In this document: positions 28,083-64,000 of the stretch, one piece after another
Layout: each line of letters starts with the position of its first letter
How positions within the stretch are numbered: position 1 is the first letter of the stretch
NCBI GenBank assembly: GCA_964474445.1
Contig: CAYYSJ010000001.1
Span: forward strand, 270,530-334,529
Direction of reading: 5' to 3'
Source: an uncultured Gammaproteobacteria bacterium
GTDB taxonomy: Bacteria; Patescibacteriota; Microgenomatia; Levybacterales; UBA12049
Length of the DNA stretch: 64,000 bases
Translations under genes and position numbers: made by a program
The notes under the pieces: generated by a model
What the model was told of the DNA's origin: nothing
Database searches by the model: none
What the model saw: only the letters and a program-made list of their open reading frames with translations

Positions 28083-29670
28083 ATACTTTTTTTAAAACAA
28101 CACCTGCTTCCTTTCCTTCAAAAACAATACAATCTCCTTTTTGGGGGAATCTCTTCAGTATATCTGTCAATTCTTCATATGTACCATAAATCAGTACCGC
28201 TTTTCCGTCTTTTGAACGAATACCTGTTTCAATATCTTTATAATAATTTTTATTTGTGACTAACAAATAATCAACATCTGCTAATACTTGTCCAATTTCT
28301 CTATGTCGCTTCGCTGCATGTTTTCCTAATTCAATGAGTGGAGTTAATATGAAAAATTTCTTAGTGGAAAAAAGATTCAGATAATTTGCTGCTGATATGA
28401 CAGATTCCGGGCTTGCATTAAATGTGTCATCCACTCCAATAACTCCACGAGGAAGATCAACTTTTTGTAATGTATGCGGGAGAGGATGAATGATGTTTAC
28501 CCCTTTTTGAATTTCCTTATCATTAAGACCAAAGTGTATCCCTAGATAAATTGCTGGAAGAATATTTTCTAAAACATGTTGGCCAATAAGATTTGTTTTC
28601 AAATGCATTGTTTGTTGTGCAAATGAGACACTGAAGAGAATACTGTCTGTTTTTAATGTAACATCATATGCAACTATGAAATTTTTTCTTGATAGCATGG
28701 GAGCATCTGCTACTTTAGTAAAGATCTTTTTTTGTTTTGTTTTTGTAGAAAGAAACGTAGTATTTTTATTGTTTGCATTAAAAATAGCAATACCATTTTT
28801 CGCCAATGCGTGAATCAACTCACTTTCTGAGGCAATGACATTTTCAAAATTTCCGTATAACGATAAATGTTGATCACTTACAGATGTTGTTACACTAATG
28901 TGAGGTTTTACCATTGTACATAATTGCGCGATCTCTCCTATTTTATATGCACCCATTTCTACAACAAAAAATTGCGTTGTTTCATCTATCTGTTTTAAGA
29001 TTGTTTTCGCAATACCAATAGGAGTGTTATTGGAAAGTGGCGTTTTTACGACTGAAAACTTCTGAGACAGTATTGTTGCAATTGCCTCTTTTGTAGAGCT
29101 TTTGCCATAACTGCCACTTACAGCAATGACTGTTAATTGTTTGCACTGTTTTATTTTTTTCTGGGCTTTTTGCATAAGATAATCCGTATAAATCTCCGAA
29201 GGGAATGACAACAAAAATACCCAAACGCTAACGACAAATGGAGTAATTCCTAACAAAATAAGTGTCCATAAGTACTTGTCTGTAAGCGGAAAGAAAAAAA
29301 GCACAGAAGTACTAACAAGACTTAATAAAATAATAAGGGCTGTCTTATAGGTAAAAATAGGACGTTTCAGTTTCCTATCAAGAATCTGTTTTCCAAAATC
29401 AAAAACAGAGAAAAGAAAAAATCCCAACACAAATACCTGAAAAAATGGAGCGAACCAATCAAAAAGGATAACGAATATATAAGATAGTATGATAAGGGTT
29501 CCACCAATTGTTGAAGAGGATGCAAAAAGTTTTTTCCCTTGATTTGTTTCACGTAAATGAACAAGTAACCTGTCCAATCGATATTCTTTATTTTGCCAAA
29601 GACCTGTCCAAAACAATATTTTTCTTAACGAAGCAAAGAGTAATACAACAAAAAGAAAAAGTAATAACAT
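28075..29670 (-). CDS. Mur ligase family protein, MurF-like, with N-terminal about 150-aa 4-TM anchor
   Basis: P-loop VIAVSGSYGKSSTKEAIATIL and MurF-like LSNNTPIGIAKTIL motif, preceded by four hydrophobic helices. Confidence 0.7.
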   Translation of the reverse strand: MLLLFLFVVLLFASLRKILFWTGLWQNKEYRLDRLLVHLRETNQGKKLFASSSTIGGTLIILSYIFVILFDWFAPFFQVFVLGFFLFSVFDFGKQILDRKLKRPIFTYKTALIILLSLVSTSVLFFFPLTDKYLWTLILLGITPFVVSVWVFLLSFPSEIYTDYLMQKAQKKIKQCKQLTVIAVSGSYGKSSTKEAIATILSQKFSVVKTPLSNNTPIGIAKTILKQIDETTQFFVVEMGAYKIGEIAQLCTMVKPHISVTTSVSDQHLSLYGNFENVIASESELIHALAKNGIAIFNANNKNTTFLSTKTKQKKIFTKVADAPMLSRKNFIVAYDVTLKTDSILFSVSFAQQTMHLKTNLIGQHVLENILPAIYLGIHFGLNDKEIQKGVNIIHPLPHTLQKVDLPRGVIGVDDTFNASPESVISAANYLNLFSTKKFFILTPLIELGKHAAKRHREIGQVLADVDYLLVTNKNYYKDIETGIRSKDGKAVLIYGTYEELTDILKRFPQKGDCIVFEGKEAGVVLKKVYE

Positions 29671-44263: not shown

Positions 44264-44571
44264 GTGATATTTGTTAGAAAGCTTATCTGGGATCCATGGA
44301 ATATACAGCATGTAGCACATCACCATGTAACCCCAGATGAAATTGAAGCAGTATGTCACAATGATCCATTAGTCCTAAGAGGTCAACAAAAAAATAGATT
44401 GGTACTAATTTTGGTTTAACTGAAGAAGAAAGAATACTTGCTGTAATTTTAGAATCTCAAGGACATGGAATGTATTATCCAATTACATCTTATCCAGCAG
44501 ATTCAAAAGACATAGCTTTATATAAACGCTTAAAACATAAAGGGGGTGAAAAGAACAATGACAAAAAGTAA
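44264..44571 (+). pseudogene. brnT-like (DUF497) ribonuclease toxin gene disrupted by frameshift
   Basis: Frame 1 (44264-44419): ...LIWDPWNIQHVAHHHVTPDEIEAV... matches the BrnT FxWDxxKxxxNxxKHGV block, then stop. Frame -1 (44398-44571): GLTEEERILAVILESQGHGMYYPITSYPADSKDIALY matches the BrnT C-terminal half. Frames overlap at 44398-44419, so a single indel explains it. Confidence 0.45.
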
Positions 44572-44827
44572 AAAAACAGGTAAAATTCCAACATTTGCTA
44601 ACCGTGAGGAAGAAGCAAAATTTTGGGAGACACACAGTATTGCAGATTTTACGAATGAATTAACACTTGTAAATGCACGTTTTACAAAAAACTTATCTGA
44701 AGGAATTACAATTCGCTTTGATAAGTCCACACTCAATGAACTGAGAGAGATTGCTCATAAAAAAGGACTTGGACCAACCACGCTAGCAAGGATGTGGATA
44801 TTGGAACATATTAGACAGCAAGCATAA
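44558..44827 (+). CDS. BrnA-like antitoxin (CopG/RHH-type, COG3514)
   Basis: EEEAKFWETHSIADF N-terminal motif typical of BrnA. C-terminal RHH-like region. Strong SD AAAGGGGGTGA 8 nt upstream of ATG. Overlaps toxin 3' end by 14 nt. Confidence 0.6.
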   Translation: MTKSKKTGKIPTFANREEEAKFWETHSIADFTNELTLVNARFTKNLSEGITIRFDKSTLNELREIAHKKGLGPTTLARMWILEHIRQQA

Positions 44828-45085: not shown

Positions 45086-46378
45086 CTATAACATAAAGTA
45101 TTTTCTCAGGAATACTCTTACACGATACAATAAACTTGGATGGAGTGGTTCAAGAACGATTTCCTCACTATTGTCTTTGTTTGGAGAGAGAGCAATGGTT
45201 ACTGTCTGATACCCGAGATGTTGTATGGTAAGAGAAGAGGATGAATTGCTAACCAATGGTATTTGATATGTTCCACTGAAATCTGTTGTACTGGTAAAAC
45301 CATCATTAGTCATTACACTTGTATTTGTAAGCAGATCTCCGAGAGTATCTTTTATCACCCCACGGACAAATGTAGGTTGATAGTATCCATGTAAAACCTG
45401 TGCAACAAGTCGTGGTGAATCATCATCATTGAATAACGCTGTAGATCCATCCAGAATAGTCCAATAGTTTATACCAGTAATATTTTCGCTGTGCGTATAG
45501 AACACGTGGAGAAGTTTTTCTACAAAATCTGCTTGTTCTTTTTCTGTCATAGCTCCATTGAGATCAGGAATGGGTGCACCAAATTCTCCCACTACAATCT
45601 GTGCATGAAAATGTTGTATAAGATAATCAATAGTATTTTCCATATCTCTTGGATTTGCCACGTAGTGATCTACAACAACAATATGTCCGACTTTATCAAC
45701 TGTTTCTGATGTCAATACCTGTTTGGCTACATCGGCATTCATTGAAAAATAACCACACTGAACATGCTTATGTATTTGCTGCATGCTATTTATACAGTTG
45801 TTGTATGAGTTAACTAAAAAACGATTGAACCTTACAGACTTTTCATTTGATCCTCTTGGATCCCCTTCTCCACCGTTTTCTGGCTGTGGAGTTGGAGTAA
45901 AAATATCCCCATCTTCAAATAGATCCGGATGTCTTAAAATGAATGCTTTTGTCAGTTTGTGATGTTGAGATATATCAGTAAACTTTGGGTAATCAAACCA
46001 TCCTTCCCATCCTGAAAAATTGCCTCGAAACCAAACTTTGAGATGATATCTCCTTGATTCATCCACCCATTCTTTTATCGTTGGGTAAAACTCTTCATCG
46101 TAAGGAGTTGCTATGGCAATATGAGTTGGATGGAGACTTGCGACATGCTGAACAACCAGGGAGATTTCACTTCGTGTAATACTCTTTGCTTTATCGCGAG
46201 AATATTTCATAGTGTCAATAGATGTTACTTCCCAAACAGTAGACTGCTGTTGGGACTGAGTTTTTTGAGGAATTGAAAGCATTTGCTGAGTGAAGGTAAA
46301 AATGAATAGTCCTAACCCAATAAAGACACCTCCAGCAAGAGAAATAAATTCTTTTTTGCTGTCATTTCTTTTTGCCAT
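45086..46378 (-). CDS. membrane-anchored putative glycoside hydrolase (TIM-barrel-like) with C-terminal beta-sandwich
   Basis: N-terminal TM. Central region with GH-like acid/aromatic blocks (WFRGNFSGWEGWFDYP, HIVVVDHYVAN, VVGEFGAP). C-terminal carboxypeptidase-regulatory-like domain. Family not resolved. Confidence 0.4.
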   Translation of the reverse strand: MAKRNDSKKEFISLAGGVFIGLGLFIFTFTQQMLSIPQKTQSQQQSTVWEVTSIDTMKYSRDKAKSITRSEISLVVQHVASLHPTHIAIATPYDEEFYPTIKEWVDESRRYHLKVWFRGNFSGWEGWFDYPKFTDISQHHKLTKAFILRHPDLFEDGDIFTPTPQPENGGEGDPRGSNEKSVRFNRFLVNSYNNCINSMQQIHKHVQCGYFSMNADVAKQVLTSETVDKVGHIVVVDHYVANPRDMENTIDYLIQHFHAQIVVGEFGAPIPDLNGAMTEKEQADFVEKLLHVFYTHSENITGINYWTILDGSTALFNDDDSPRLVAQVLHGYYQPTFVRGVIKDTLGDLLTNTSVMTNDGFTSTTDFSGTYQIPLVSNSSSSLTIQHLGYQTVTIALSPNKDNSEEIVLEPLHPSLLYRVRVFLRKYFML

Positions 46379-47996
46379 AATAAGATATTACATGTAATTG
46401 ATCTAGATATCGTGGATTTAGTTCGTAGATATCTGCAAACGGAAAATGTTCTATTAACGTATACTTCTTAAAGCCCGGTGATGTACGAACTACTTTAAAT
46501 GTTTGATCATTTATATCATTTGTTCGCATAACAATCCACTGTGCCCATCTATCTGGATTTTTTGTGGCACTATCCCAATACGTTCCCGTCCCCTCATGAA
46601 TGAATTTACTCATGGGAAGACCTGAAGAGAAGATAATTGCATCATGAGAAGCTGCTGAAATCAAGATGAGTCCTGGCTCATCTTTAGCGTGCTTTGCCAA
46701 CCAGGTACTTACCTCTGTAACATTTTTCTGACTTGCTCCTACTCTTGCATCATCGATAGTAACGGCATCTTTACTGGCAAAAGAAAAGAACGTGACAAAC
46801 AGCAGTAGTCCAATTAGTACGGTACGTAAAGTTTTTACTTTACCGACTAAGTATCCGACAAAAATAGCAATTGAAGGAGACATCATGATCCCATACCGAA
46901 CGTTAAACAAAGTATTTCCGGAAATACCTTGTACAAAGAGTACTGAAAAACCCAAGTAAAGAGAGAGTATATTAAAAACAAGTGGTGTCAATAATGCGAG
47001 ACTGATAATTTTGGTATTACTGCAAATCTTCTTATTCAAATAAAATATCACTGCTCCAACAGCGCCGAGAAACAAGATAAATAATCCAACATTGTAAGCT
47101 AAGGCATAGTAATATACTTTAAAGGACAACGCGAGGTTACTTTTTGTTATCAGATCTCCTGCCTGGGAAAGTTGTTCTTGCTGTGCATGTGCAGAATATG
47201 GTCCGAGAGCAAAATATAACGCATCATGAAAAATAAATTGATTCCACAAGAACCATAGTGCAATGCCAAAGCCAGCAAGAGTGATAAATAAAAGAACAAG
47301 TCCTTCTGTGGCCTTGTATCCTTTTTGTTTAAAGAACACAATCGCTATCAGTATTGTAGTAACAAAAAATAAAAACCATCCATCATATCGAATGAGTGTT
47401 GTAAGCATTATCCAAAAGCTTGCTTTTACAAAATCGATTATTTTTTGTTCCTGCTGCCAAACTAAGAGATAGTATATCCCAGCAATCATTGCTGCAAGCA
47501 ATGGAAGTTCTGTCATTGCGGTGGATTGTAAATAAAGAACATTAATATTTGCGACAAAAATGAATACGCCTACAATTCTTCCTACTATTCCCGTTTCTAT
47601 TCTCTTTAAAAAGAGAAAAATAAGAAAGCCAATTGCAACAAATGAAATCATAGACTCTAGCGCTCCTGATAAACCTGAATGCCACATACCATTGTTCCAA
47701 ATAGTTGGTATCATGAGTAAATGAGGCAATGGAAGCCAGACACTTCCTATTTGTCCAAGGCCTGGTTTGAGGCCTTCAACAACACGTCTCCCAATATCTA
47801 AATGTGACCGCGCATCATTATATGCAACTCCTAAGCCATTCGTATAATAGAAAATAAAACTGACAATTGAAATGATAATTAAAATAAAAAGTACTATTTT
47901 GGGTAGTATTTTTTCAAGATCCTGTCCCTTTATTGTGAGGATGCCCTTTGCTATCTGAATATGATATTCCAATTCAAATTGTGTTAATTTTTTCAT
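46362..47996 (-). CDS. GT-C fold membrane glycosyltransferase (ArnT/PMT-like, GT39/GT83-type)
   Basis: About 12 TM helices. First extracytoplasmic loop with Asp-containing motif (YNDARSHLDIGRR), large C-terminal soluble domain. Start set at ATG 47996, which forms an ATGA overlap with the stop of the upstream gene. Confidence 0.6.
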   Translation of the reverse strand: MKKLTQFELEYHIQIAKGILTIKGQDLEKILPKIVLFILIIISIVSFIFYYTNGLGVAYNDARSHLDIGRRVVEGLKPGLGQIGSVWLPLPHLLMIPTIWNNGMWHSGLSGALESMISFVAIGFLIFLFLKRIETGIVGRIVGVFIFVANINVLYLQSTAMTELPLLAAMIAGIYYLLVWQQEQKIIDFVKASFWIMLTTLIRYDGWFLFFVTTILIAIVFFKQKGYKATEGLVLLFITLAGFGIALWFLWNQFIFHDALYFALGPYSAHAQQEQLSQAGDLITKSNLALSFKVYYYALAYNVGLFILFLGAVGAVIFYLNKKICSNTKIISLALLTPLVFNILSLYLGFSVLFVQGISGNTLFNVRYGIMMSPSIAIFVGYLVGKVKTLRTVLIGLLLFVTFFSFASKDAVTIDDARVGASQKNVTEVSTWLAKHAKDEPGLILISAASHDAIIFSSGLPMSKFIHEGTGTYWDSATKNPDRWAQWIVMRTNDINDQTFKVVRTSPGFKKYTLIEHFPFADIYELNPRYLDQLHVISYYGKKK

Positions 47997-50212
47997 GTAT
48001 GCTCCTTTCTGATATACACTCCTGCCATAAGAATAAGGCAAGACAGAAGAAGAATTGTGTAAATAGCTACGTAGTAATTCATTGCAGAAATTTTATCCTT
48101 TAGATAAAATTGCCAAACAAAAGATTTTGAATGATCTTCCTTTAACAAATCAAGATCCCGTTCGTAGGTATATTTCTCTACTTTTCCACTTATCTTTTCG
48201 AATACAGGGACTTGGATTTGTGGTGGATTGCTATTTGAGGTTAATGCTCCTATGGTATTTACAGATAAAGACCATGCGAACGGAAGGAAAAACACCAAAA
48301 GAAAGATGAGATGTTTTTTCCATGTTTCTACTGTGAAAGCGAGAAATAAGGCACAAAGTGCGTAGGAAGGGATAAGGTATCTAGCACCAAAAGCCCATCC
48401 TCCCCATGGATCTCCCCACATCATATAGAGAAGTATGTTTATGCCAATAATGGCGATCAGTAAAGAAGCAATGGAGCTATTCTTCTTATATAAATAAATA
48501 GCCCCCCAAATACTTAAAAACATTATTGGGGTAAACCATAGTACCCCTCTATCAGGTGATAACAAAAGAATATATGCGCCATTTATCATATTTCTTGTTA
48601 AGAAAAATCCCACAGCAGATTTTTTCTTCTCAAAGGCAAGACCTTTATCGACATTACTCAGTTGAAGAAGGGTTGGTTTGCCTTTTGCGTTAATGGCAGA
48701 AACGTCCAGAACCGTTCCTGCTAATTGAAACGGACTACCATAGGAATGTGTGTTAAACCAAAAGAAAAAAACAAAAGGAATAATCATTACGGCAAAAGAT
48801 AGTATTCTCACTATTTTTATCTTTATTGTCATACTGTTTTCCATAACTCTCACATATATAATTTTTCCTAATGCAAAAATTCCTATGGGAAGCATAAAGA
48901 AAACATTCGGATTATCAACAACGGGAGAAAGTGCACATAAAAACCAGATCAACGCAAGAGACCAGATTGAATCCCATGCAATTACAGCATAAAGACTCAT
49001 GAGAATAAGAAACGTAGAGATGTGATGTTGATAGAGGGAAACAGCATAGGAAAAAGCGGGTGATCCAAACAAAAAGGCAAATGCAGCAATTGTCGCGGCT
49101 CCTCGACCTGCTCCAAGTTTTATAGCGATTTTTCTGATAAGTATGGCATTTAAAAGACCAAAAAATGCAATCACGGCAAATGACCCTACTTGTGACATGC
49201 CCAATAACTTTCCGACGGAATACCCTGGAAGGATCATAAATGATATAGCGGGAGCAAAAAGAGATACATAGTGACCATTTTTAAAACCCACGTCCGGTGT
49301 AGAAAATCGTGCAAGGGGCAGGCTTAAATATAATGAGTGATTTTCTATAAATGAGTATGTTAATGCAAATCTCCCTCTTTCTGGAGACAATTCAAATGGT
49401 CCTGAATCTCTCCAGAAAGTAGAATTAAGTGTTATTTCTGTGGGATTTCCTAAAATCCCACGTAATGACAGTGCGAGTATAATACTGCAAAAAACAATAA
49501 AGAAAAATAGGGAAGCTACTTTGTTAAACTTTGTAAATCTATGAAGAAAACGTAGAAGTATATTTCTTAGGAGGATGCTTCTCTTGTTGTTAACAAGAGT
49601 TGTCTGTATATGAGACGTGTCAGTTGCTTTTATTGTATTATTTTTTAAAACCCTGTTAAAAAATTCGAGTCGTCCCCTTACATATTCTCTTAGTGAGGAA
49701 CCATTTAAGTCTTTCTTTAATTTTTCGTATTCATATAAAATTCTTTTATCATGTTTAAATATCTGAAAAATTCTTAGTCTTTCTTTACACATACTTGTAT
49801 CTGGATCCATCAAGGAAAGTTCAACAGGGAATCCTTTCCAAGAAAAATGCCATTCTATAAAATTCTTTCTGATTTTATATGGCTTTCCAAATAGACGAGT
49901 GAATGTTAGTATGTATTTATGAAAACTTTCTTTAGGGCTTACTGTATATAAATCTATATCATTCAATCCTGCAATCTTCAGACTACTAGACCCTGCGGCA
50001 ATTATTTTCAATGTGGGAAATTGTGATTTTATTATAATAATAATGTTTTGTATTGCTTTTTGGACCAGAGGATTATATGGCCCAATTCTTACTTTTTGTT
50101 TTGAAGATAGTACAAAAGAAAATAGATACTCTCTTGGACTTTGTACAAGGAGTAGAATATCTCGTCTCATTCGTTTCATCCGTTTTTTTATTTCTGACAT
50201 GTATTTTTCCAT
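47993..50212 (-). CDS. fusion protein: GrpB-like nucleotidyltransferase domain + GT-C fold membrane glycosyltransferase
   Basis: N-terminal about 230 aa with AAGSSSLKIAGLNDIDLY (GrpB/pol-beta NTase GS...DIDL motif). C-terminal about 500 aa polytopic, ER-motif loop (LSPERGRFALTYSF) like ArnT/PMT. Start uncertain (ORF extends to 50278). Confidence 0.55.
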   Translation of the reverse strand: MEKYMSEIKKRMKRMRRDILLLVQSPREYLFSFVLSSKQKVRIGPYNPLVQKAIQNIIIIIKSQFPTLKIIAAGSSSLKIAGLNDIDLYTVSPKESFHKYILTFTRLFGKPYKIRKNFIEWHFSWKGFPVELSLMDPDTSMCKERLRIFQIFKHDKRILYEYEKLKKDLNGSSLREYVRGRLEFFNRVLKNNTIKATDTSHIQTTLVNNKRSILLRNILLRFLHRFTKFNKVASLFFFIVFCSIILALSLRGILGNPTEITLNSTFWRDSGPFELSPERGRFALTYSFIENHSLYLSLPLARFSTPDVGFKNGHYVSLFAPAISFMILPGYSVGKLLGMSQVGSFAVIAFFGLLNAILIRKIAIKLGAGRGAATIAAFAFLFGSPAFSYAVSLYQHHISTFLILMSLYAVIAWDSIWSLALIWFLCALSPVVDNPNVFFMLPIGIFALGKIIYVRVMENSMTIKIKIVRILSFAVMIIPFVFFFWFNTHSYGSPFQLAGTVLDVSAINAKGKPTLLQLSNVDKGLAFEKKKSAVGFFLTRNMINGAYILLLSPDRGVLWFTPIMFLSIWGAIYLYKKNSSIASLLIAIIGINILLYMMWGDPWGGWAFGARYLIPSYALCALFLAFTVETWKKHLIFLLVFFLPFAWSLSVNTIGALTSNSNPPQIQVPVFEKISGKVEKYTYERDLDLLKEDHSKSFVWQFYLKDKISAMNYYVAIYTILLLSCLILMAGVYIRKEHT

Positions 50213-50219
50213 ATAATTT

Positions 50220-51002
50220 TTATATTGGTAAATCTTTTGGGATAAAATAGACTTCTTCGTGATAAGGAATACGTCCATCAGGAAATAAATGCAAGAATTG
50301 TGATTGATAAGACGCGATCTGTTCTCTTTTTTTTATCAGATCTACTGTTACTACAATTTTTTGATATCCTTTTGGAGGCTTACCATAATTATTTAGCCAA
50401 ATATTATAGGGGAAATCACTATAATAGATTATGTTCTTTGATAGCGCTTTGCACACATTATGGACCAATATATGATCAACATGATTACCAATTCCCAAAG
50501 GAGCAAAAATATAATCATTTTTCACATTAGTAATTTGTTTTATTTGCTGAGTAATATTTTTCATAGTTGACCAGTCGAGGGGAGATAATCTTCCTGTGGT
50601 AATATGATATTTGTATGTAGGGTATATAACTGATAATTCAGGAATTACTGTCTCGAGCATTTGTAATAATCCGTGCTTTTCTTTCTTTCTCCATAAAGCA
50701 TCAACAAACCCCAAATTAATTGGTGAAATGTGCAGTTTTTTATATGCAGACCTATCCTCTTCACGTCTTCTTTTATATAATATACTTGCATTTTTGTATC
50801 CTAATTTTTTTAGATACCACCAAGCAGATATTGTTGATTTAACATTAGGTGCATCTGTGAAGACATTTATGACAATCAATTCTCTTTTTTTTGAAAGAGA
50901 GCTTATTAGCTGACTACATGACAATAATGCATCGTCAAGATGAGGTGACACAAAACAATAATTTGTTTTCATTCTTAAAAAAGTTCTAAGAAAGTTATCC
51001 AT
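50220..51002 (-). CDS. PIG-L/LmbE-family N-acetylglucosaminyl deacetylase
   Basis: VSPHLDDALLSC (HPDDE-type) and GNHVDHILVH (HxDH) zinc-binding motifs. Confidence 0.75.
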   Translation of the reverse strand: MDNFLRTFLRMKTNYCFVSPHLDDALLSCSQLISSLSKKRELIVINVFTDAPNVKSTISAWWYLKKLGYKNASILYKRRREEDRSAYKKLHISPINLGFVDALWRKKEKHGLLQMLETVIPELSVIYPTYKYHITTGRLSPLDWSTMKNITQQIKQITNVKNDYIFAPLGIGNHVDHILVHNVCKALSKNIIYYSDFPYNIWLNNYGKPPKGYQKIVVTVDLIKKREQIASYQSQFLHLFPDGRIPYHEEVYFIPKDLPI

Positions 51003-52101
51003 GGTGTTTAAGTATAGTATTCACAAATGTTTTGTATTTTTTTGCTATGTTATCCCATGTTTGCAATGTAACTAATTTCCTTCCCCTTTCGGACAACAAT
51101 TTCCTTAGTTTTATGTCTTTTGATAGTTTTACCATTGCTTTTCCAAACATATGTGAATTAAAAATAGGAATCTTTATAGAAACAGATTTTGGAATCCAAC
51201 GTAAACCAGGAATGTCAAAACATACTATTGGTATTCCATAGTTAAGAGATTCGAGTGCTATTAATGAGTACGTTTCATATCGTGATGGAATAACGACAAA
51301 AATTGCATTTCTCAGAAGCCTTTTTTTCTTTTCTCCTTCTATTCTTCCAACAAAAATAATATTCTTACCTAAATGAAGTTTCCTAACAAGAGATTTTAAT
51401 ATTTCCTGATCTGCTGGCATCCCTGATCCAGCTATCACAAGAGAAAAATCCAATTCATCTTGTACTGTTTTGTAACTTTCCAATAATAAATCTAGTCCTT
51501 TTTGATTTACTTCTAACCTGCCCATAAAAAGTATGTATTTTTTGTTGTTTGTACTCATTGGCTTTTCATGATGAATCCCATTAGGAATAATAGTAACGAA
51601 AGATTCAGCATTCTTTTTTTGTATGAGTGCCTTTGAATACTTACTAAGAACAATAAAGTATCTATATGTGCGTAGACCAAAATCTTCAATAACATGAAAA
51701 GGTAACTTATATTTTCTTTCCATATCTGCAGCACAAAGCATATGGACCAAGCCAATAACTGGTTTTTTTGTGACTAACTGCAAAAATCCCGTAGAAAATG
51801 GTGGAGTAAAATTCTCAATCCATACATCGAATTTCTGTGACATAGCATAGAATGGAAGAAGTAGTTGATATACAAATTGTTCAAATTGTGGATTACCAAA
51901 GGGATAACCAATCCTTTTGTAGGTAATGTTATCTATCTTCTCATCTGAACTATTTTTAAACTTTGCTGTTATAATGGACACGTCATAGCTTGAGGAAATT
52001 TTTTTTGCAATTTCGTGTATCGCAATTGCACCTCCTCCTGAATAATAAGGATTTCCAATTGAGTCGTAATTAGAGAAAATGATTGTCTTTTTTTTATTCA
52101 T
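50995..52101 (-). CDS. GT4-family glycosyltransferase (GT-B)
   Basis: C-terminal FMGRLEVNQKGLD...SRYETYSLIALESLNYGIPIV with EX7E motif. Confidence 0.8.
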   Translation of the reverse strand: MNKKKTIIFSNYDSIGNPYYSGGGAIAIHEIAKKISSSYDVSIITAKFKNSSDEKIDNITYKRIGYPFGNPQFEQFVYQLLLPFYAMSQKFDVWIENFTPPFSTGFLQLVTKKPVIGLVHMLCAADMERKYKLPFHVIEDFGLRTYRYFIVLSKYSKALIQKKNAESFVTIIPNGIHHEKPMSTNNKKYILFMGRLEVNQKGLDLLLESYKTVQDELDFSLVIAGSGMPADQEILKSLVRKLHLGKNIIFVGRIEGEKKKRLLRNAIFVVIPSRYETYSLIALESLNYGIPIVCFDIPGLRWIPKSVSIKIPIFNSHMFGKAMVKLSKDIKLRKLLSERGRKLVTLQTWDNIAKKYKTFVNTILKHHG

Positions 52102-55100
52102 GTATTTGCTACGGTACTTATTTCAGGTTCTGGAACCATTTGTACTGTCTCGCTCATAAATAGTTGTAAACTTTCTTTAGCACTCGTATCCCAGTCATAA
52201 ATTTTTGCCCATTCTATAGCGTTTCTTGATAATTGTTCTCTCAGGTTGTTATTGGTAATAATTTCAATAATCTTTTGTGCAAATGCATCAGCATTACCAT
52301 ACTCAACAAGAAAACCCGTATTGGGATTGTTAATTGAGTCACATAAACCAGGAACATCTGAAGCAATAGCAGGTGTTCCACACGCATTTGCCTCAATCGT
52401 TGTAATTCCCCATCCTTCTATCATTGATGGGTTAACTAGTACCCATGATTTTTGGAATAATTCAATTTTTTCTTTTTCAGTAATTTGTCCTAAGAAGAAA
52501 ACATTGTTTTCAATTTGTAATTTTCCTACAAGCTTTTGCATTCTCTTTTTATCTTCACCATCACCCGCAATAATAAATTGTATATCTGACATCTTTTGGA
52601 GAATTTTATCAGCCGCATGAATAAGTACCTGAAGACTTTTATAGAATTGAATTCTTCCTACGTACAAAATAATTGGTTTTTCATTCTTCTTACCAGGTTT
52701 GAATTTAGTCAAATCTACCCCATTGTAAATAATAGTTGGTTCAATAGTTGTAAGTTTATGAGATAGTATGGCTTGCTTGGTTGACGGAGAAACCGTAAAA
52801 ATTTGTGTATTTTTATACACAAGCGGCATAAGTTTTAATTCTAAAAAGGAGGCCAGCCAAGAGAAAGGAGGTATAAGGGATTTTCTAAATACTTCTTGAT
52901 GCACATGGTGAATAAGAAGAAATATTTTTTGCCTAGCGTAGAGCGGTGTAAAGAATGGTATACCATTCTCACAATCGAGAATAATATTGTAGCTATTTCT
53001 ATATTTGAATATGTAATACAAAAATGCCCAAACATACACAAAATAAAAACCTCCTCTTCTTTGTACTTCTACCCCATCAATAATTTCATGTTTTAAAGAT
53101 TTTCCATCATTGCTGCAAAATAATGTTACCAGATAACCATCTTTGATCCATCGTTTTGAAAGTTCATGAATGTATATCTCTGCTCCTCCAGCAAACTTAT
53201 GTCTTGTATCTCTCCAATTAAATATTAAAATGGCTTTCCTATCCCTGTTTACATTAGGTGATTCCTGCGAGAAGAATAATTCAAAAACATCCTTCAGATT
53301 ATTTTCAAATACTATAACGTGTTTTCGCATGAGGTGAAGTAGAACCATTCCTATGATATGTAATGCAGCAGTAGTAACCATTACTTCTACAAAATCAGCA
53401 ATACTTTGATGAATGAGTTGTAAGAGTATTATTTGTATTATTCCTAACACAAAAGCGAGTAAAGAAAATGTGTATATTTTCTTTGCTAGATAAAACGAAA
53501 CAATAATTTGTGATAGAGAAAAACAAACCAACCCTAAACAAAATACTGGTAGATAATCTGTTATCGATATTGCTTTTGGTCCAAAAAAAAGAGGGACCGT
53601 TAGATAACCAAATAAGCCGAGTACTATATAGCCAAAAGATGTTAGTAAACCAGCCGAAAGCAATGTGTACGTTAGCACGTGGTCTGAATTTTTATTAGCT
53701 CCTTCGCTTCGACTAACAAGAGGCATAATAAAGGGAAATACTAAAGAAGCTAGAAAATAAATTATTTTCCCTGTCAATGAAAGTAACGAATATTTTCCAG
53801 CATCCAAAGGTGGTAAAAAGTGTTTTGCTAAGATAACATCCAAACTCAAAAAACTTATTGCTGATAATCCTCCAAGAACAGATACTAAAAAGAATTTAAT
53901 TGGGAAACTCATTTGGTAAATAGTTTCTTTCAGGGATATATGTTTTGTCGTTAGTACTAATACAACTAATCCAAAAACAAAAGATGAAATAACAGACAAT
54001 GGAATGGAAACATACGTAAGTGAGCCACCGTAAAGAGGTGCTAGGATAAGTGCAAAAGATAATTTTATAATAGGTTCAATGACATATACGACTCCTACAA
54101 TAGCAAAAAGAAATTCCCCATACAAAAATCCCTTATTTACCGCTGTAGGAATAATGATGATAAGTAAAGGAATAAAAGAAAGGAAAACATATGGGTCGTT
54201 AATATTAAAAAAGTGCATGAATAGAGGGGAAAAGGCTATCCAAAGACAAGCAAAAAACACGGAAATGAAAAGTGATTTTTTGAATACATCTTTCCAGATA
54301 CTAAGACTTGCTCCTTTTCCATATTTCCCTACCATGTAGCTACTTTGGTGGTTAACAGTTGCACTTATAGCAGTTATCGGTATAGATAAAAAAGACAAAA
54401 AACTTCCAAGAGTGGTAATAAGTGAAAAATTTTCTAAATCTAAAACTCTCCCAAGATAGGCATTAAAAATAAAATTGAGTACATTTGCGATATTTATAGC
54501 AAGGATAAGTAAAGCCCCTTCCCAAAAAGGTTGTTTGTTTTGTAAACTGCCTATGATTTTTTCCCTCAGCGTTTCTACCGGTAAAAAAATGCTTCTTATA
54601 CCAAGAATAAGTTTTGGTATTTCCTTGTTTTTGCTTGGTTGCAAATGTAACCCATGAAGGGTTTTTTCCCAATAGTAAGGTCTGAAAAGTAATTGATACA
54701 ATGCAATAACTCCAGACCAACTAATAAGGAACCAATAGATGGGAATACAATAGACATATTTAACAAGCTCCCATTGCTCCTTTTTTGTGCATCCAAGCAT
54801 ATAGAGATATGCGAACATAAAATTCCCGAAAACTAATGAACTAAATGCAATATAGAAAACATAAGAAGGATATAATGCTTGAATAGATGGGCCAACAAGG
54901 GAAAAAAGAATAAAATAGGCAATGGTTGCAGTCCAAAGGAGTGGATTAATAAGAATAAATGCAACTTTTCCACCAATGGTAAGGTGAAAAAATAACGCAT
55001 GAATGATATTATTTTTGATAAATAAAAAATCCTCTCGTGTATGAACTAAGTATGTTTGCATATATCCTTTGATCCATCGCGATCGCTGTCGTATCCAATT

Positions 55101-56783
55101 AGCAACACTACTATTTGCTTCTTCCAAAGTAATTGATTCAATGATTGCTGTTTTGTAACCTTTCTTAAAAAGCCGTATACCCAAATCTGCATCTTCGGCT
55201 ACATTAAATGGATCCCATCCTTGAAGGTGTTTCATGTCTTCTGTTCGGAAATGGTTGCTTGTTCCACCAAGTGGAATACTAGTATGTGTCGCTTGAAGAC
55301 CAGTAAGTGTTATGTCAAACCACAAGGAATACTCAGCGGTAAAAAAACGAGTTAATAAGTTCTGGTGAGGATTGTAGTAGTTAAGCTTTGCCTGTAAACA
55401 TACAACATCTCCTGCAACTTTTTGGAATCCAAGATAAGCTTTTTTTAATTGGAATGGATCAGGGATGTCTTCTGCATCATAAATAACTACGTATTCCCCT
55501 TTTGTTTGAGAGAGTCCATAATTGCACGCTTTTGGTTTCGTTTTAGGAATTGAGTGAGGAACAATAACTGGACGAATATAGGAAGGGAGGTTTCTGTTTG
55601 TAACTGCTTCAATAAACTTTTTATCATCTTCTTCAAGGAGAAGCATGACATCAAGTTTTTCTTTCGGCCAATTAAGTTTTGCAATTGCCTCTATAAATTG
55701 TGGAATAACATCTGTTTCTTTATACAATGGACAGAGAATGGAATAGATGGGGAGATTCTCATCTTTAAGTGCGTGTAACTCATCAGGTGTTGAGAAAATT
55801 TCTTGAGGAGAATGAAGACTTCTCATAACAAGGAAAAAATTAAACAAGACATCAACAAAGTAAATAAAGCTTAAAGCGCCAATAATGCATTGTGCGGTGA
55901 AGAGTGGCTTTAGGAAAAGTCCTAGGAGTATCAATACAACGAGTAATCCAATCATTATTTTTTGTTTGCCAATAAGGGTTTGAATAGCAGATTGAGAATG
56001 ATGAAGAGTGGTATGCGTAATATATTTTCTTCTCTTATACCCCACTCCTGCTCCTTTCATCGACCCTTTATCAGTTGGAGGAAAATGAATTGGGTTAATT
56101 TTCTTTCCTTTAACTAACAATGCATTTAGTCCTATCTCAACGCTTGTCTTAAGGAGAGATACTTTTGACTTACCATTTATTCGCTGGGCGAAGATAATGT
56201 CAAAGCTTTCAACAACAAATCCTGCTTCCGTTGCACGCTGGAGGAATTCAAGATCAAATGTCCAGCCAGAGGAAGGAGCATAGGAGAGAGTCTGAAAGAC
56301 CTCCCTTTTAAAAACTTTCAACCCTGCTTGAATATCATGATTAAGGCCAAATAGAAGCTCACCAAATACATATCTAAATGAATTACTAATAAGGCTACGT
56401 ACTTTTGAGACATGTTTTTCTATCCGATTCGCAACAACAACATCTGCTCCATTCTCAAGTTTTTTGATCATTTTCGGAATTACCTCTGGAGGATATTGGA
56501 GATCTGCATCAATACATACAATATAGTCGCTCGAAGATTTTTGAATACCTTGATAAAGAGAAAAAGCTTTCCCTCTCTTTCCTTTTTTTATTTCAAATCT
56601 AATAGGATACTTTGTTTGTAGAGACTTGATAACCTGTAGGGTATTATCTGTAGAGAAATCGTCAACAAAAATAATTTCATATGACTTATTTTCTTTTACA
56701 AACGCTGTATGTATTCTGTTAACCAGCGGTGTAATATTATTTTCTTCATTCCAGACAGGAATAATAATAGTAATGTGTTTCAT
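52098..56783 (-). CDS. giant four-module glycosyltransferase: GT2 (Dpm1/ArnC-like) + processive GT2 synthase (QxxRW/TED) + polytopic flippase-like membrane domain + GT4
   Basis: Residues 5-230: IIIPVWNEE...DADLQ (GT2-A). Residues 345-590: DAED, TED, QRSRW (processive GT2 as in BcsA/PgaC/NodC), plus 4-5 TM helices. Residues 760-1160: about 12 TM helices resembling a Wzx/MOP-type polysaccharide exporter. Residues 1185-1540: GT4 with EGWGITTIE (EX7E). First ATG is at 56783; the ORF track starts at TTG 56795. Confidence 0.8.
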   Translation of the reverse strand: MKHITIIIPVWNEENNITPLVNRIHTAFVKENKSYEIIFVDDFSTDNTLQVIKSLQTKYPIRFEIKKGKRGKAFSLYQGIQKSSSDYIVCIDADLQYPPEVIPKMIKKLENGADVVVANRIEKHVSKVRSLISNSFRYVFGELLFGLNHDIQAGLKVFKREVFQTLSYAPSSGWTFDLEFLQRATEAGFVVESFDIIFAQRINGKSKVSLLKTSVEIGLNALLVKGKKINPIHFPPTDKGSMKGAGVGYKRRKYITHTTLHHSQSAIQTLIGKQKIMIGLLVVLILLGLFLKPLFTAQCIIGALSFIYFVDVLFNFFLVMRSLHSPQEIFSTPDELHALKDENLPIYSILCPLYKETDVIPQFIEAIAKLNWPKEKLDVMLLLEEDDKKFIEAVTNRNLPSYIRPVIVPHSIPKTKPKACNYGLSQTKGEYVVIYDAEDIPDPFQLKKAYLGFQKVAGDVVCLQAKLNYYNPHQNLLTRFFTAEYSLWFDITLTGLQATHTSIPLGGTSNHFRTEDMKHLQGWDPFNVAEDADLGIRLFKKGYKTAIIESITLEEANSSVANWIRQRSRWIKGYMQTYLVHTREDFLFIKNNIIHALFFHLTIGGKVAFILINPLLWTATIAYFILFSLVGPSIQALYPSYVFYIAFSSLVFGNFMFAYLYMLGCTKKEQWELVKYVYCIPIYWFLISWSGVIALYQLLFRPYYWEKTLHGLHLQPSKNKEIPKLILGIRSIFLPVETLREKIIGSLQNKQPFWEGALLILAINIANVLNFIFNAYLGRVLDLENFSLITTLGSFLSFLSIPITAISATVNHQSSYMVGKYGKGASLSIWKDVFKKSLFISVFFACLWIAFSPLFMHFFNINDPYVFLSFIPLLIIIIPTAVNKGFLYGEFLFAIVGVVYVIEPIIKLSFALILAPLYGGSLTYVSIPLSVISSFVFGLVVLVLTTKHISLKETIYQMSFPIKFFLVSVLGGLSAISFLSLDVILAKHFLPPLDAGKYSLLSLTGKIIYFLASLVFPFIMPLVSRSEGANKNSDHVLTYTLLSAGLLTSFGYIVLGLFGYLTVPLFFGPKAISITDYLPVFCLGLVCFSLSQIIVSFYLAKKIYTFSLLAFVLGIIQIILLQLIHQSIADFVEVMVTTAALHIIGMVLLHLMRKHVIVFENNLKDVFELFFSQESPNVNRDRKAILIFNWRDTRHKFAGGAEIYIHELSKRWIKDGYLVTLFCSNDGKSLKHEIIDGVEVQRRGGFYFVYVWAFLYYIFKYRNSYNIILDCENGIPFFTPLYARQKIFLLIHHVHQEVFRKSLIPPFSWLASFLELKLMPLVYKNTQIFTVSPSTKQAILSHKLTTIEPTIIYNGVDLTKFKPGKKNEKPIILYVGRIQFYKSLQVLIHAADKILQKMSDIQFIIAGDGEDKKRMQKLVGKLQIENNVFFLGQITEKEKIELFQKSWVLVNPSMIEGWGITTIEANACGTPAIASDVPGLCDSINNPNTGFLVEYGNADAFAQKIIEIITNNNLREQLSRNAIEWAKIYDWDTSAKESLQLFMSETVQMVPEPEISTVANT

Positions 56784-57142
56784 TTCTACAGACAATGCTA
56801 ATAACGATATATAGGCATTGTGTTGAACCTATGTAGGACTCTTTTGTAAGAATGGTTTTTCATACTGGCGGTTTTTATTGACTATAGGCAGACCAGTATG
56901 TAGTCCTCCTACTAAAGTAATGAGAAGTTGTTTGTCCAAATACTTTTTTCCATGTGATGGTAATGTGCTCATTTCTTTTTATGGAATTAGTATTTTCTCT
57001 ATTCTCCTTCTCGTACTATAAGTGGGACTATTAACGTTAAAATATACAGGAAGCAAGTAAAAAGAAATGATAAATATGCAACAAGTTAGTAAGAACGTTT
57101 TATAACTAAGACCATGAGAGGTTCTTTCTTCATGTGATTTTA

Positions 57143-57290
57143 CCCCAAAGCTATTTCGTACCTATTCTCTAGTACCTCACACCGCTTCCCAATATGCCTT
57201 CAATCTGGTTCCAATTTTTTTCTAAAATGTCCACACGAGGATAAAATTCTCTTATAACTTTATTCTAAGATAAATTTTGAGGCTAATTTG
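57143..57290. repeat. diverged direct repeat copy A (about 150 nt)
   Basis: About 75-80% identical to 58298-58430. Shared blocks include agtacctc(a/c)cacc, ttcccaa(t/a)ata, ttcaa(t/c)ctg(g/a)ttccaa, atgtccac(a/t)cgagg, aattttgagg. Confidence 0.55.
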
Positions 57291-57307
57291 GTTCCAATAC
57301 CTGATGT

Positions 57308-62216: not shown

Positions 62217-64000
62217 TTAGCGCAATTTCAAATTGAGTGTTTTATCAGTTTGCAGGATAAATTCGTTCATCTGATGACCTCCAACTTGCACAACATAATC
62301 CTGGCTATCTGTACCACCCTGCTTTTGAACCATCAGAGGAAGCACGGAGTTATTCGCAAGCTTAAATGGTAATTCGTAGGTAAGTGTATATGTTGCTGCT
62401 CCAAGAGGTCGTACAGTAAGGAACCCTTCAAAGACTGTCTTCCCCAAATCATCAGATGTCTTTACGCTTACTTCAGATCCTTGGGAACTCAAGAGTCTAC
62501 TTCCTTTTGGAACATATACTCGAAGCCAATCTCGCTGGATTGCATTCAAGCACAACCCACCACGCTCTAAGTTACAATCTGATGGAGGGAACGGATTCTT
62601 GTATGAAATCGTTACTGTCTTTGTGAGTGTTCCATCAGACTTGATGTCATAATTTTGTGTTACTGATTCTTTCAGGAAAAGATTCGATTTTGCACCACCA
62701 AAGTTTGTATCATTCACATGTAGATAATCACCATCAAAGGCCATAATTCTGCCGCTTGCATTCAGAGATTCAAGCCCACTTTGTGCGTCTGCATTATTCA
62801 TATCAAACAACACATGCTTTTGAGATACTTCTGTTATCATTGTCTGGAAAAGTGGACCCCAGTATTTCTTTGGAGAAGATTGGAATGCTTTTTGCATAAT
62901 TGCATACAAAAGGTCTCCCACAATACCTTTTCTATTTTGTTTAATGTAATTAACAGGAGTATCTGAATATTCCTCAAGAGCATAGATAACTTGTGCACAT
63001 TTACATCGTGGATCCGTCTGGGTAGTAAAGGTTGATCCATCAACTTCTACATCTCCCAACACACTCATTGCACTCACCAAGGCATGGGTATCAACAGCGA
63101 TAATTCCTTCAACTGGCACATATCCACCTGCTTGTTTATACATCGTATTGAAATTATTCATTGATTGAACGAAGTCAGGTGACAGATTGGTGTCTCGCAA
63201 GTTCCATTGTGGCACTTTTGGCAAATAAGTCAGAATGGGAGCTGGAGCAACCGGCTTATTTGCAATGGTTGCATCTAAGTTATAGATATCGTTTGAACTA
63301 TCAACATGAATAACACCATGCTCAAGTCTAAAAACTGCATAGGCAGTAATAAAGCCACCTGTTGGACGAAGTTCTTTATCATTTTGGAAGATCACTAAAT
63401 ACTTTTTTTCAGTTGGTTCTCCAAGCATTGAAGGCAGGACTTTAATAAGAGGCTTTGCTTGAGTAACAAATGTGGATGCTTCATCAACCCCAAGCTTAAG
63501 AGCTTTGAGATTATCTTGAATTTTCTGTCCACCAAACAGTGCAGGATAATGGTTTGGATCTACCGCATCAACTTCTTTTTGTACTAATACCAATTGGCTT
63601 CCTATTTCATCAATTTTGGGAGTCACCTTACTCATGGTCGTGACTGCTTTTTGAATTCTATCTTGGGCAGATCCACCGACAAAACTTCCCTGACCTTTTA
63701 GCCCCAAGACATCAGCATATGGTTTAATCGCATCAACTAAGATTTGTCCAGCATTTCGTCCATACACAGCAGCATTGACTAAATGTACTGCATCACTGTA
63801 ATAAAAGTTTGCAACAGGAACAAATGCTAGATACCCCATCCCTGCGAGTGCTTTTTGTGTTTTTTCAATTTCTGGCTTTGTCGCAGCAAGTTGTACAGAA
63901 GCATCTTCAACATTTTGTGTTTTTAATGCATTCAGAGCAAGCTTTGCCTGTACATATGTTTTTCTTGCCTGTGCAAATACTTGTATCCCCGGCAGCAGGA
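62217..64000 (-). CDS. large hypothetical protein, 5' end beyond window (partial)
   Basis: The 540-aa ORF from Met 63839 continues in frame without stop to the window edge (manual translation of 63840-64000 gives ...KALAGMGYLAF). Possibly DUF4012-like extracytoplasmic protein; not verifiable here. Confidence 0.5.
   Translation of the reverse strand, partial: LLPGIQVFAQARKTYVQAKLALNALKTQNVEDASVQLAATKPEIEKTQKALAGMGYLAFVPVANFYYSDAVHLVNAAVYGRNAGQILVDAIKPYADVLGLKGQGSFVGGSAQDRIQKAVTTMSKVTPKIDEIGSQLVLVQKEVDAVDPNHYPALFGGQKIQDNLKALKLGVDEASTFVTQAKPLIKVLPSMLGEPTEKKYLVIFQNDKELRPTGGFITAYAVFRLEHGVIHVDSSNDIYNLDATIANKPVAPAPILTYLPKVPQWNLRDTNLSPDFVQSMNNFNTMYKQAGGYVPVEGIIAVDTHALVSAMSVLGDVEVDGSTFTTQTDPRCKCAQVIYALEEYSDTPVNYIKQNRKGIVGDLLYAIMQKAFQSSPKKYWGPLFQTMITEVSQKHVLFDMNNADAQSGLESLNASGRIMAFDGDYLHVNDTNFGGAKSNLFLKESVTQNYDIKSDGTLTKTVTISYKNPFPPSDCNLERGGLCLNAIQRDWLRVYVPKGSRLLSSQGSEVSVKTSDDLGKTVFEGFLTVRPLGAATYTLTYELPFKLANNSVLPLMVQKQGGTDSQDYVVQVGGHQMNEFILQTDKTLNLKLR

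Follow-up and report, generated by a model that had tools for sequence, protein, structure and literature searches.

Multi-component systems for transmembrane glycosylation have been described from Gram-positive bacteria, in which Wzx-type flippases and glycosyltransferases (GTs) of the GT-C fold, either of PMT_2 type or without a Pfam family, decorate lipoteichoic acid (LTA), wall teichoic acid (WTA) and wall polysaccharides (PMC8035078). The described sets include CsbB/GtcA/YfhO, GacI/GacK/GacL, CsdAB/CD/EF and GtsABC, and for the small GT-Cs a separate acceptor-binding partner has been proposed (PMC8035078). The locus analysed here is a six-gene operon on the minus strand of a 64,000-nucleotide (nt) stretch of contig CAYYSJ010000001.1 (the window; all positions are counted from its first letter). 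The Microgenomates form a large branch of the candidate phyla radiation (CPR)/Patescibacteria without cultured members, and to our knowledge nothing is known biochemically of their envelope glycans. In a 2019 survey by Méheust et al. the protein families enriched in Microgenomates were mostly hypothetical and often membrane proteins (PMC6744442), and a 2024 preprint called glycosylation in Saccharibacteria unexplored (PMC11623550). Neither the locus nor three of its protein families (g3, g2 and g1 below) turned up as described in literature searches.

Using the public gene starts, the operon extends over 45086-56783. With moderate confidence we read it as the local copy of a Microgenomates-wide locus that uses a lipid-linked, split-compartment route to assemble an envelope glycopolymer or else a glycan anchored to a glycolipid. 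The lipid-linked logic is supported by a GT2 domain of polyprenyl-phosphate type, a Wzx homologue and two GT-C folds with predicted extracytoplasmic carboxylates. Most likely, a polysaccharide or a glycolipid and not specifically proteins would be the final acceptor, because the locus combines a synthase domain, a glycosidase-like partner that is fused to both GT-Cs in related genomes, and a sugar cassette of heteropolysaccharide type. An earlier sequence-only reading had suggested lipid-linked protein or envelope O-glycosylation after the logic of actinobacterial Ppm1/Pmt; the lipid-linked envelope system stands, while protein O-mannosylation of the Ppm1/Pmt kind is not upheld, as there is no PMT match and no DE pair and the partners are of polymer type.

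Gene and domain content

Six co-directional minus-strand open reading frames (ORFs) fill positions 45086-56795, and no further long ORF lies within the region. The genes were named g6 to g1 in the order of transcription.

52098-56783, minus: g6, a giant of 1561 amino acids (aa) with the order GT2a, transmembrane (TM) hairpin, GT2b synthase, Wzx flippase, GT4 (two GT2 and one GT4 match in Pfam)
56079-56783, minus: GT2a of g6 (aa 1-235), DPMS/ArnC/GtrB-like putative polyprenyl-phosphate glycosyltransferase (sequence matches in PDB)
55830-55970, minus: predicted TM hairpin of g6 after GT2a (aa ~272-318; hydropathy peaks at 276-294 and 300-318)
54684-55781, minus: GT2b of g6 (aa 335-700), membrane-embedded GT2 of synthase type followed by ~4-5 TM helices (Pfam Glyco_tranf_2_3 and Glyco_trans_2_3)
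53274-54551, minus: putative Wzx/MOP-type flippase region of g6 (aa ~745-1170, ~12 predicted TM segments; homology to stand-alone proteins)
52101-53231, minus: GT4 of g6 (aa ~1185-1561; Pfam Glycos_transf_1, 1.9e-48, and Glyco_transf_4)
50995-52101, minus: g5, stand-alone GT4 (368 aa) of the accessory module (Pfam Glycos_transf_1, 1.5e-25)
50220-51002, minus: g4, cytoplasmic de-N-acetylase (260 aa) of the PIG-L/LmbE family (Pfam PIG-L, PF02585)
49613-50212, minus: N-terminal domain of g3 (aa 1-200), GrpB-like nucleotidyltransferase (NTase) of Pol-beta fold, cytoplasmic (Foldseek, Pfam)
47996-49570, minus: membrane glycosyltransferase of predicted GT-C fold in g3 (aa 215-739), of a sequence-orphan family (AF2 model and Foldseek)
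46362-47996, minus: g2, membrane glycosyltransferase of predicted GT-C fold (544 aa), putative divergent member of the ArnT/PMT_2 superfamily (Foldseek, homology to a paralogue)
45086-46378, minus: g1, N-terminally anchored extracytoplasmic protein (Pfam, family profile)

Both ATGA stop/start couplings pointed out in the sequence-only reading were verified, one at the g6/g5 junction (52098-52101, read on the minus strand) and the other at g3/g2 (47993-47996), where an AGGAG Shine-Dalgarno sequence lies ahead. The overlap is 8 nt at g5/g4 and 17 nt at g2/g1, so that the claim of overlaps of 4-17 nt between all genes holds for four of the five junctions; g4/g3 departs from it, with a 7-nt gap when the public start ATG 50212 (739 aa) is used and a 59-nt overlap if g3 starts at ATG 50278. 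The giant gene had also been started at TTG 56795, for which the public call has ATG 56783 (1561 aa). All six genes were present with the domain content claimed for them. Pfam bore out the labels of the multi-GT giant, the GT4 and the PIG-L protein, whereas the NTase::GT-C label of g3 was borne out by the fold search and a sub-threshold full-length match to GrpB, the ArnT/PMT-like label of g2 by fold and transitive homology, and that of g1 as a membrane-anchored protein resembling glycoside hydrolases (GH) by weak but repeated evidence. All six proteins are nameless in every source examined. At the two ends of the operon, scans for promoters and terminators returned no more matches than expected by chance, and neither tRNA genes nor Rfam matches were found within the window.

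By homology, GT2a is a polyprenyl-phosphate glycosyltransferase. Its best sequence matches in PDB were the dolichyl-phosphate mannose (Dol-P-Man) synthase of P. furiosus (5mlz, 1.2e-24), ArnC (1.9e-18) and GtrB (5.9e-16), and among the NCBIfam models it matched ArnC, PgfS (4.7e-22) and, over nearly the full length, AglJ (2.8e-19), all below the equivalog cut-offs. Three characters of polyprenyl-phosphate GT2 enzymes thus come together in it: the closest solved members, the DxD-type motifs (VDDFS and IDADL), and the TM hairpin after the GT-A domain, whose position we take to match that of the C-terminal hairpin in GtrB/DPMS-type enzymes. The second domain, GT2b, has the motifs YDAED, AEDADLG and QRSRW and TM segments at 593-695, and aligns with the cellulose synthase BcsA (1.2e-7) via the catalytic ED and QxxRW motifs; as judged from sequence, it carries the motifs and TM helices of processive membrane GT2 synthases of the BcsA/HAS/PgaC type. 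No Pfam match of its own was obtained for the flippase region, even at E ≤ 10. Its homologues (1e-90 to 1e-15) include stand-alone proteins of 420-480 aa with PF01943/PF13440 (Polysacc_synt), annotated as O-antigen/teichoic acid export membrane protein. The GT4 domain at the C-terminus had its best NCBIfam matches among MshA/BshA-type enzymes.

The GT-C relationship of g2 and g3 was visible by fold comparison only, since sequence and profile searches of all PDB chains were empty: neither g2, with single sequence or family profile, nor the GT-C part of g3, even with the family profile, matched any Pfam family or PDB chain. AlphaFold (AF2) models were built on alignments of 34 sequences, and their pLDDT was 73 for g2 and 86 for g3. 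With the g2 model, Foldseek ranked STT3 (3.4e-5) first, followed by ALG12, DPY19, ArnT and PglB, Pmt4 appearing only at E = 0.1; with the GT-C part of g3 the order was ArnT (9.6e-5), Pmt4 (2e-4), EmbA, AftB and ALG12. The GT-C probability was 1.0 for both, and also for both the highest target-normalised TM-score was given by ALG12. Three positions of loop 1 are invariant in each family (D61, D67 and E74 in g2; E274, E290 and D307 in g3), and g3 is always acidic also at positions 269 (D269) and 278 (E278). According to the models, both proteins have the GT-C fold with the loop-1 carboxylates outside the membrane, and by analogy we infer from the co-encoded GT2a and Wzx domains that a polyprenyl-phosphate sugar would be their donor. 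The extracytoplasmic C-terminal domain of g2 (aa 420-544) is highly conserved. The 2190 homologues of g2, the top ones 62-73% identical, and the 751 homologues of g3 are all unnamed and from CPR/Patescibacteria metagenomes. That g2 and g3 are recent paralogues was rejected, as profile-profile comparison showed no detectable homology between them.

The N-terminal domain of g3 has the NTase motif G-S-x9-D-x-D at 49949-49993, and its Foldseek matches were palm domains of Pol beta/lambda/X and 6n39, a CoaE with a GrpB domain. Against Pfam GrpB (PF04229) it scored E = 0.002 and 18.7 bits, which is below the cut-off of 25.5, with profile positions 2-158 of 159 aligned; three members of the g3 family match GrpB, up to 1.5e-4. 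No TM segment precedes TM1 of the GT-C part.

In g1, a putative GH-A-like (beta/alpha)8 domain (aa ~45-335; PQPENGG, GEFGAP) is followed by a CarboxypepD_reg beta-sandwich (aa 338-411; Pfam 1.4e-7). Enzymes of clan GH-A have a (beta/alpha)8 barrel with the acid/base Glu on strand 4 and the nucleophile Glu on strand 7. In the g1 family two glutamates separated by 98 residues, E167 and E265, hardly vary. Glyco_hydro_cc was matched by 14 of the 39 family members (best 9e-6), and the family profile aligned the GEFG strand with GH10, GH5 and GH53 enzymes, with E-values from 1.6e-4 to ~1, by which g1 weakly resembles the glycosidases of the clan. A dedicated glycosidase is usual in synthase-dependent polysaccharide systems, for example BcsZ, PgaB, PelA and PslG.

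The two remaining genes form a cytoplasmic module. The g5 protein has a weak match (1e-6) to the model of the N-acetylglucosamine (GlcNAc)-phosphatidylglycerol synthase. The g4 protein scores 53 bits against Pfam PIG-L (cut-off 28.2), has the metal-binding motifs HxDD and HxxH intact (SPHLDDA, HVDH) and is without a TM segment. The GC content of g5 and g4 (50220-52101) is the lowest, 0.31, against 0.36-0.37 in the core genes g2 and g1 (45086-47996) and 0.37 in the window, which fits an exchangeable accessory cassette.

Related loci and the variable cassette

The conservation scan included one genome per species, and the arrangements were counted from the best 80 species-representative loci. 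A relative of g2 was found in at least 584 species, and the informative record titles among these named members of the Microgenomates (Levy-, Ames-, Woese-, Gottesman- and Daviesbacteria). Many of the species-representative metagenome-assembled genomes that have this locus of Microgenomates type bear the titles 'uncultured Gammaproteobacteria', 'Bdellovibrionales' or 'Pseudomonadales', most likely as placeholder mislabels. Immediately upstream of g2 lies g3 in 69 of 70 loci, and g1 was found ≤6 kb downstream in 66 of 71, being adjacent in 51. A protein with Wzx and GT4 parts, usually the full four-domain giant, is present upstream of g3 and g2 in 45 of 58 loci. The arrangement of the operon is therefore not due to chance. 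The conserved core has the order giant, variable sugar cassette, g3-g2-g1, and two parts of the copy in the window are infrequent: of 58 related loci, 12 have PIG-L and 3 have the NTase domain.

The cassettes of 33 loci, which lie between the giant and g3, contain altogether 142 ORFs, including 53 GT2, 22 GT4, 12 CE4 deacetylases, seven APH kinases and five PIG-L, and further epimerases, DegT aminotransferases, Rml enzymes and methyltransferases. This census is typical of heteropolysaccharide loci and not of a single-mannose modification. No phosphoglycosyltransferase, Wzy, ligase or LCP was present among the 25 most frequent cassette families of these loci. The gene-pair signature of GtrB-type systems was also scarce: just 11 of 63 loci have a small GT2 immediately ahead of g3, and the small GT2s of the cassettes mostly lack the GtrB-type C-terminal TM hairpin; the role of the polyprenyl-phosphate-sugar synthase thus seems to reside in the giant.

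Several genomes contain fusion proteins of the parts. On the cytoplasmic side these are GT4::PIG-L (L069), PIG-L::NTase directly upstream of g3 (L065), PIG-L::NTase::APH::g3-type GT-C (P0003) and APH::CE4::g3-type GT-C (P0058). In two others g1 is joined to a GT-C, of g2 type in P0287 and of g3 type in P0298, and there it follows the C-terminus of the GT-C and takes the place of its own membrane anchor, which puts the g1 domain on the extracytoplasmic side together with the catalytic loops. In the predicted topology, g1 and loop 1 of each GT-C are outside. The fusions divide the system into two blocks, one in the cytoplasm, where tailoring enzymes (GT4, deacetylase, and NTase or kinase) form a chain that feeds g3, and one on the outside, a complex of g3, g2 and g1.

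In the envelope-glycan assembly that we favour, GT2b and the GT4s would build a glycan on a membrane lipid carrier at the cytoplasmic face, and GT2a would load a monosaccharide onto polyprenyl phosphate. The system would thereby be one of the multi-component transmembrane kind, combined with a polysaccharide machine of synthase type. For this genome we further suppose that g5 would add GlcNAc, which g4 would de-N-acetylate to glucosamine (GlcN) and the NTase fused to g3 would tailor further into a residue or donor, in analogy to the work of ArnC and ArnD ahead of ArnT. The Wzx domain would carry the lipid-linked intermediates outward, where g3 and g2 would move sugars from lipid donors onto the growing envelope glycan. 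That glycan would be bound, trimmed or transglycosylated by g1 in physical association with both GT-Cs, and its strain-specific sugar composition would be set by the variable block between the giant and g3.

Similar parts are known from the biosynthesis of glycosylphosphatidylinositol (GPI) anchors, PIG-A/PIG-L/DPM1/PIG-M,V,B, and of phosphatidylinositol mannosides (PIM), PimA/Ppm1/PimE. The operon could accordingly be thought to make a GlcN-lipid-anchored lipoglycan, resembling GPI or PIM and lipomannan (LM): a GT4 would place GlcNAc on a glycerolipid, PIG-L would deacetylate it, and after flipping the GT-Cs would extend it with polyprenyl-phosphate sugars from the Dpm1-like GT2. The parts list agrees with both pathways, the three fusions with PIG-L tie the deacetylase product to the g3 GT-C, the weak match of g5 is to a GlcNAc-phosphatidylglycerol synthase model, and the leading ALG12 is a Dol-P-Man-dependent GT-C. 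De-N-acetylation, however, does not belong to the core, as seen from the counts of PIG-L in related loci and of PIG-L and CE4 in the cassettes; moreover, the lipid acceptor is without support, the BcsA-like synthase would be left without a role and Wzx without one beyond flipping. We consider this route distinctly improbable.

Slightly more doubtful still is an en-bloc oligosaccharyl transfer resembling the archaeal Agl pathway. There GT2a, like AglJ, would prime polyprenyl monophosphate, and the chain would be extended by soluble GT2 and GT4 enzymes and flipped by Wzx, after which g2 would probably transfer the whole glycan to protein, peptidoglycan or a polymer, the other GT-C adding the final sugar in the manner of AglS. 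The nearly full-length match of GT2a to the AglJ model is in line with this, and so are the cassette GT2s, most of which lack the hairpin and look like chain extenders, the missing phosphoglycosyltransferase among the 25 most frequent cassette families, and the position of STT3 subunits and PglB among the top Foldseek matches of g2. Also the conservation of g2, which is far higher than that of the cassette, would suit a transferase recognising a conserved acceptor. Yet g2 is without the large C-terminal domain of STT3/PglB/AglB, no WWDxG-type motif was seen in its sequence, its TM-scores of 0.45-0.49 are no better with these than with ArnT or ALG12, and the BcsA-like synthase domain stays unexplained. 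Taken broadly, a eukaryote- or archaeon-like route to an envelope glycoconjugate that would define the Microgenomates lineage, in which a GlcN-bearing lipid-linked glycan, GPI/PIM-like or AglJ-primed, is flipped by Wzx and then finished or moved en bloc by two hitherto unrecognised GT-C families in complex with a glycosidase-like subunit, is rather improbable; if true, these enzymes would represent a new class of bacterial oligosaccharyl- or lipoglycan-transferases.

Two further observations concern related loci. One of them (L007, 16601-22998) has a second block downstream of g1, which encodes a protein with two GT2 domains, another GT2 of small size and a pair of PMT_2-type GT-Cs. Over its full length one GT-C of the pair is paralogous to g2, and sets of GT2 and GT-C genes thus seem to have expanded as modules. 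A small gene of HTH_17 type (excisionase-type DNA-binding) overlaps the start of the giant gene at L003 1923-2132 and L007 1-85, and may be a dedicated regulator in these loci. An equivalent ORF was not evident upstream of g6 in the window (56784-57307).

The PMT relationship and the acceptor

The sequence-only reading had named a PMT-like DE motif in loop 1 beforehand as a test of its proposal. An adjacent DE pair is absent from loop 1 of both families, the nearest being N60-D61 in g2 and L273-E274 and P277-E278 in g3. The GT-Cs were not classified as PMT either: neither g2 nor g3 matched Pfam PMT (PF02366, at E ≤ 0.01), PMT_2 or PMT_4TMC. Among the family members scanned, PMT was matched by none of the 34 of g3 and by one of the 34 of g2 (3e-5), and PMT_4TMC by none of the 68. 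For g3, no link to the PMT_2 superfamily was detected and it stays a sequence orphan. The full-length paralogue of g2 in L007 (21490-22998; hhalign 3.7e-90, 39% identity) does pass the Pfam cut-offs of both PMT_2 (PF13231; 39.8 bits vs 26.1) and PMT (38.3 vs 22.7) with residues 79-217, its PMT match being confined to the region after loop 1. Through this paralogue, and thus by transitive homology only, the g2 family would be a divergent branch of the ArnT/PMT_2 superfamily. In Gram-positive bacteria the polymers decorated by PMT_2-type GT-Cs are for the most part LTA, WTA and wall polysaccharides (PMC8035078), and therefore the likeness to PMT_2 is uninformative on a protein acceptor.

If proteins were glycosylated, GT2a would make the polyprenyl-phosphate sugar and g3 and/or g2 would transfer it to Ser/Thr of Thr/Pro-rich disordered segments in anchored or exported proteins. 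The two enzyme types needed, a DPMS-like GT2 and GT-Cs, are encoded in the operon, the g2 family has the transitive tie to PMT and PMT_2 just described, and in streptococci systems of GT2 and GT-C enzymes glycosylate membrane proteins in disordered stretches rich in Ser/Thr (PMC12041528). The Thr/Pro- or Ser-rich anchored ORFs that had been suggested as acceptors (1426-2274, 9139-9393, 14341-14961 and 18281-18589) proved real, and anchored Ser/Thr/Pro-rich ORFs occur also in 16 of the 80 related loci. No Thr/Pro-rich gene has a conserved position beside the locus, nor is there a substrate gene inside it at a conserved position among the 80 loci, as there is in the Pgf cluster. Such proteins are common in these genomes without being linked by position, and they neither support nor refute a protein acceptor. 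Besides the missing PMT matches and DE pair, Pmt is not the top structural match, since STT3, ALG12 and ArnT rank equal or higher, and the BcsA-like synthase, the extra GTs, the variable cassette and the GH-like partner are not needed by the known O-mannosylation or Pgf systems. Protein O-glycosylation is thus a possible but unlikely function of the operon.

Two of the proposed acceptor ORFs carry recognisable domains. At 14341-14961 (plus strand) an exported cupredoxin resembling amicyanin/plastocyanin is encoded (Cupredoxin_1, 2e-15; YHCRIHPFMHG), with a Ser/Gln-rich C-terminal tail, and at 1426-2274 (minus strand) a membrane-anchored DUF5667 protein with long Thr/Pro-rich linkers.

Several points count against the envelope-glycan assembly as well. 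All activities were deduced from homology or fold, the sugar, the carrier and the acceptor are presumed, the g2 model is moderately confident with low confidence within loop 1, and the glycosidase assignment of g1 comes from weak scores. Priming enzyme and ligase families are not among the 25 most frequent cassette families. The GlcN step does not belong to the core, since PIG-L and NTase are absent from most related loci. By analogy to the streptococcal systems, the same parts list could also glycosylate proteins (PMC12041528).

Surroundings of the operon and likeness to described systems

Directly downstream on the same strand lies a complete dcw cluster (19505-43905, minus strand) in the order MraZ, RsmH, FtsI, MurE/MurF-type ligases, MurA, sugar nucleotidyltransferase, GlmU-like protein, HAD hydrolase, GlmS, MraY, FtsW, MurG, FtsA and FtsZ. 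Less usual for such a cluster are an additional Mur-ligase-M protein (28075-29670), the DegT aminotransferase encoded at 26862-28082 and the FemAB-like protein at 25859-26875. A functional link of the operon to cell division was considered and rejected, as MraZ, RsmH or FtsI lay within 10 kb in none of the 80 related loci. The 1.2-kb gap between g1 and MraZ contains on the opposite strand a CopG-antitoxin-like ORF (44546-44827, plus strand; Pfam 5e-10), for which no partner toxin was identified. Elsewhere in the window the envelope-related genes include, besides that of the DUF5667 protein, those of a YkuD L,D-transpeptidase (11146-11874, plus strand) and a DUF4012 protein (62217-63839, minus strand). 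The window also encodes a protein of the Peptidase A4 family of eqolisin-type acid peptidases (16119-17087, plus strand; Pfam 3.5e-38). Peptidase A4 is a mostly fungal family, uncommon in bacteria. DUF4012 is enriched in CPR and Gram-positive bacteria (PMC6744442).

The locus places three unnamed families (g3, g2 and g1) and a four-enzyme fusion into a concrete pathway in at least 584 species, and adds two GT-C families outside the coverage of Pfam. It provides candidate genes for the surface structure that these presumed episymbionts show to their hosts and phages. Specific in-vitro tests are possible without culture, and the locus gives useful and testable access to the cell surface of CPR bacteria.

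The likeness to the Gram-positive multi-component systems includes a membrane GT2 that makes a polyprenyl-phosphate sugar, a flippase (of Wzx type in GacK) and transfer by a GT-C outside onto an envelope polymer, and in those systems too the GT-Cs are often PMT_2 or without a Pfam family and have ArnT, STT3, PglB and AftD as top structural matches (PMC8035078). The present locus, from a CPR lineage, differs in having the GT2 and the flippase fused with a BcsA-like synthase and a GT4 into one 1561-aa protein, two adjacent GT-Cs from families absent from Pfam, and a GH-A-like partner that in some genomes is fused to either GT-C.

Actinobacterial Ppm1 and Pmt (GT39) share with it the polyprenyl-phosphate-sugar GT2, a GT-C acting outside and Thr/Pro-rich exported proteins in the genome. 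Here, in contrast, Pfam PMT and PMT_4TMC are matched by neither g2 nor g3, their loop 1 is without a DE pair, and the operon has, besides a flippase and a glycosidase-like protein, also a deacetylase and four more GT domains, with a variable nucleotide-sugar cassette in the related loci. The streptococcal GtrB/PgtC2 and Pgf (PgfS/PgfM1/PgfE/PgfM2) systems likewise combine a GT2 undecaprenyl-phosphate-sugar synthase with one or two GT-Cs, and their acceptors are Ser/Thr-rich segments of membrane-anchored proteins (PMC12041528), such as are encoded also in the window. Their GT-Cs, however, belong to the YfhO family, the adhesin substrate genes are inside the Pgf cluster, and synthase, Wzx and GH partner are absent.

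With the Arn pathway (ArnC, ArnD, ArnE/F, ArnT) the locus has in common a GT2 of the kind making polyprenyl-phosphate aminosugar and a cytoplasmic deacylase, which in the Arn pathway frees the amine before flipping, followed by a GT-C, which there transfers the cationic sugar. ArnC is among the top matches of GT2a, ArnT is the top Foldseek match of g3, and the deacetylase::GT-C fusions mirror the order from ArnD to ArnT. Unlike in the Arn pathway, the deacetylase is PIG-L and not CE4, which is present in other loci, its module is accessory, the added NTase and APH have no Arn counterpart, and no lipid A genes were seen in the window. The exopolysaccharide systems BcsA/BcsZ and PgaC/PgaB similarly have a QxxRW GT2 with a TM region, an extracytoplasmic glycosidase-like partner and frequent deacetylases, but here there is no BcsB, PilZ or cyclic di-GMP module, the synthase is inside a multi-enzyme flippase fusion, and two GT-Cs belong to the core. 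Eukaryotic GPI and mycobacterial PIM, LM and lipoarabinomannan (LAM) have comparable cytoplasmic GT4 steps (with PIG-L in GPI), flipping, and GT-C extension with DPM1/Ppm1 donors, while here PIG-L is not core and g2 and g3 are without sequence relationship to PIG-M/V/B or PimE. On present evidence the logic of the pathway is familiar and not a categorically new mechanism; unfamiliar are its two families of GT-Cs, its glycosidase-like partner and the fusion of four enzymes.

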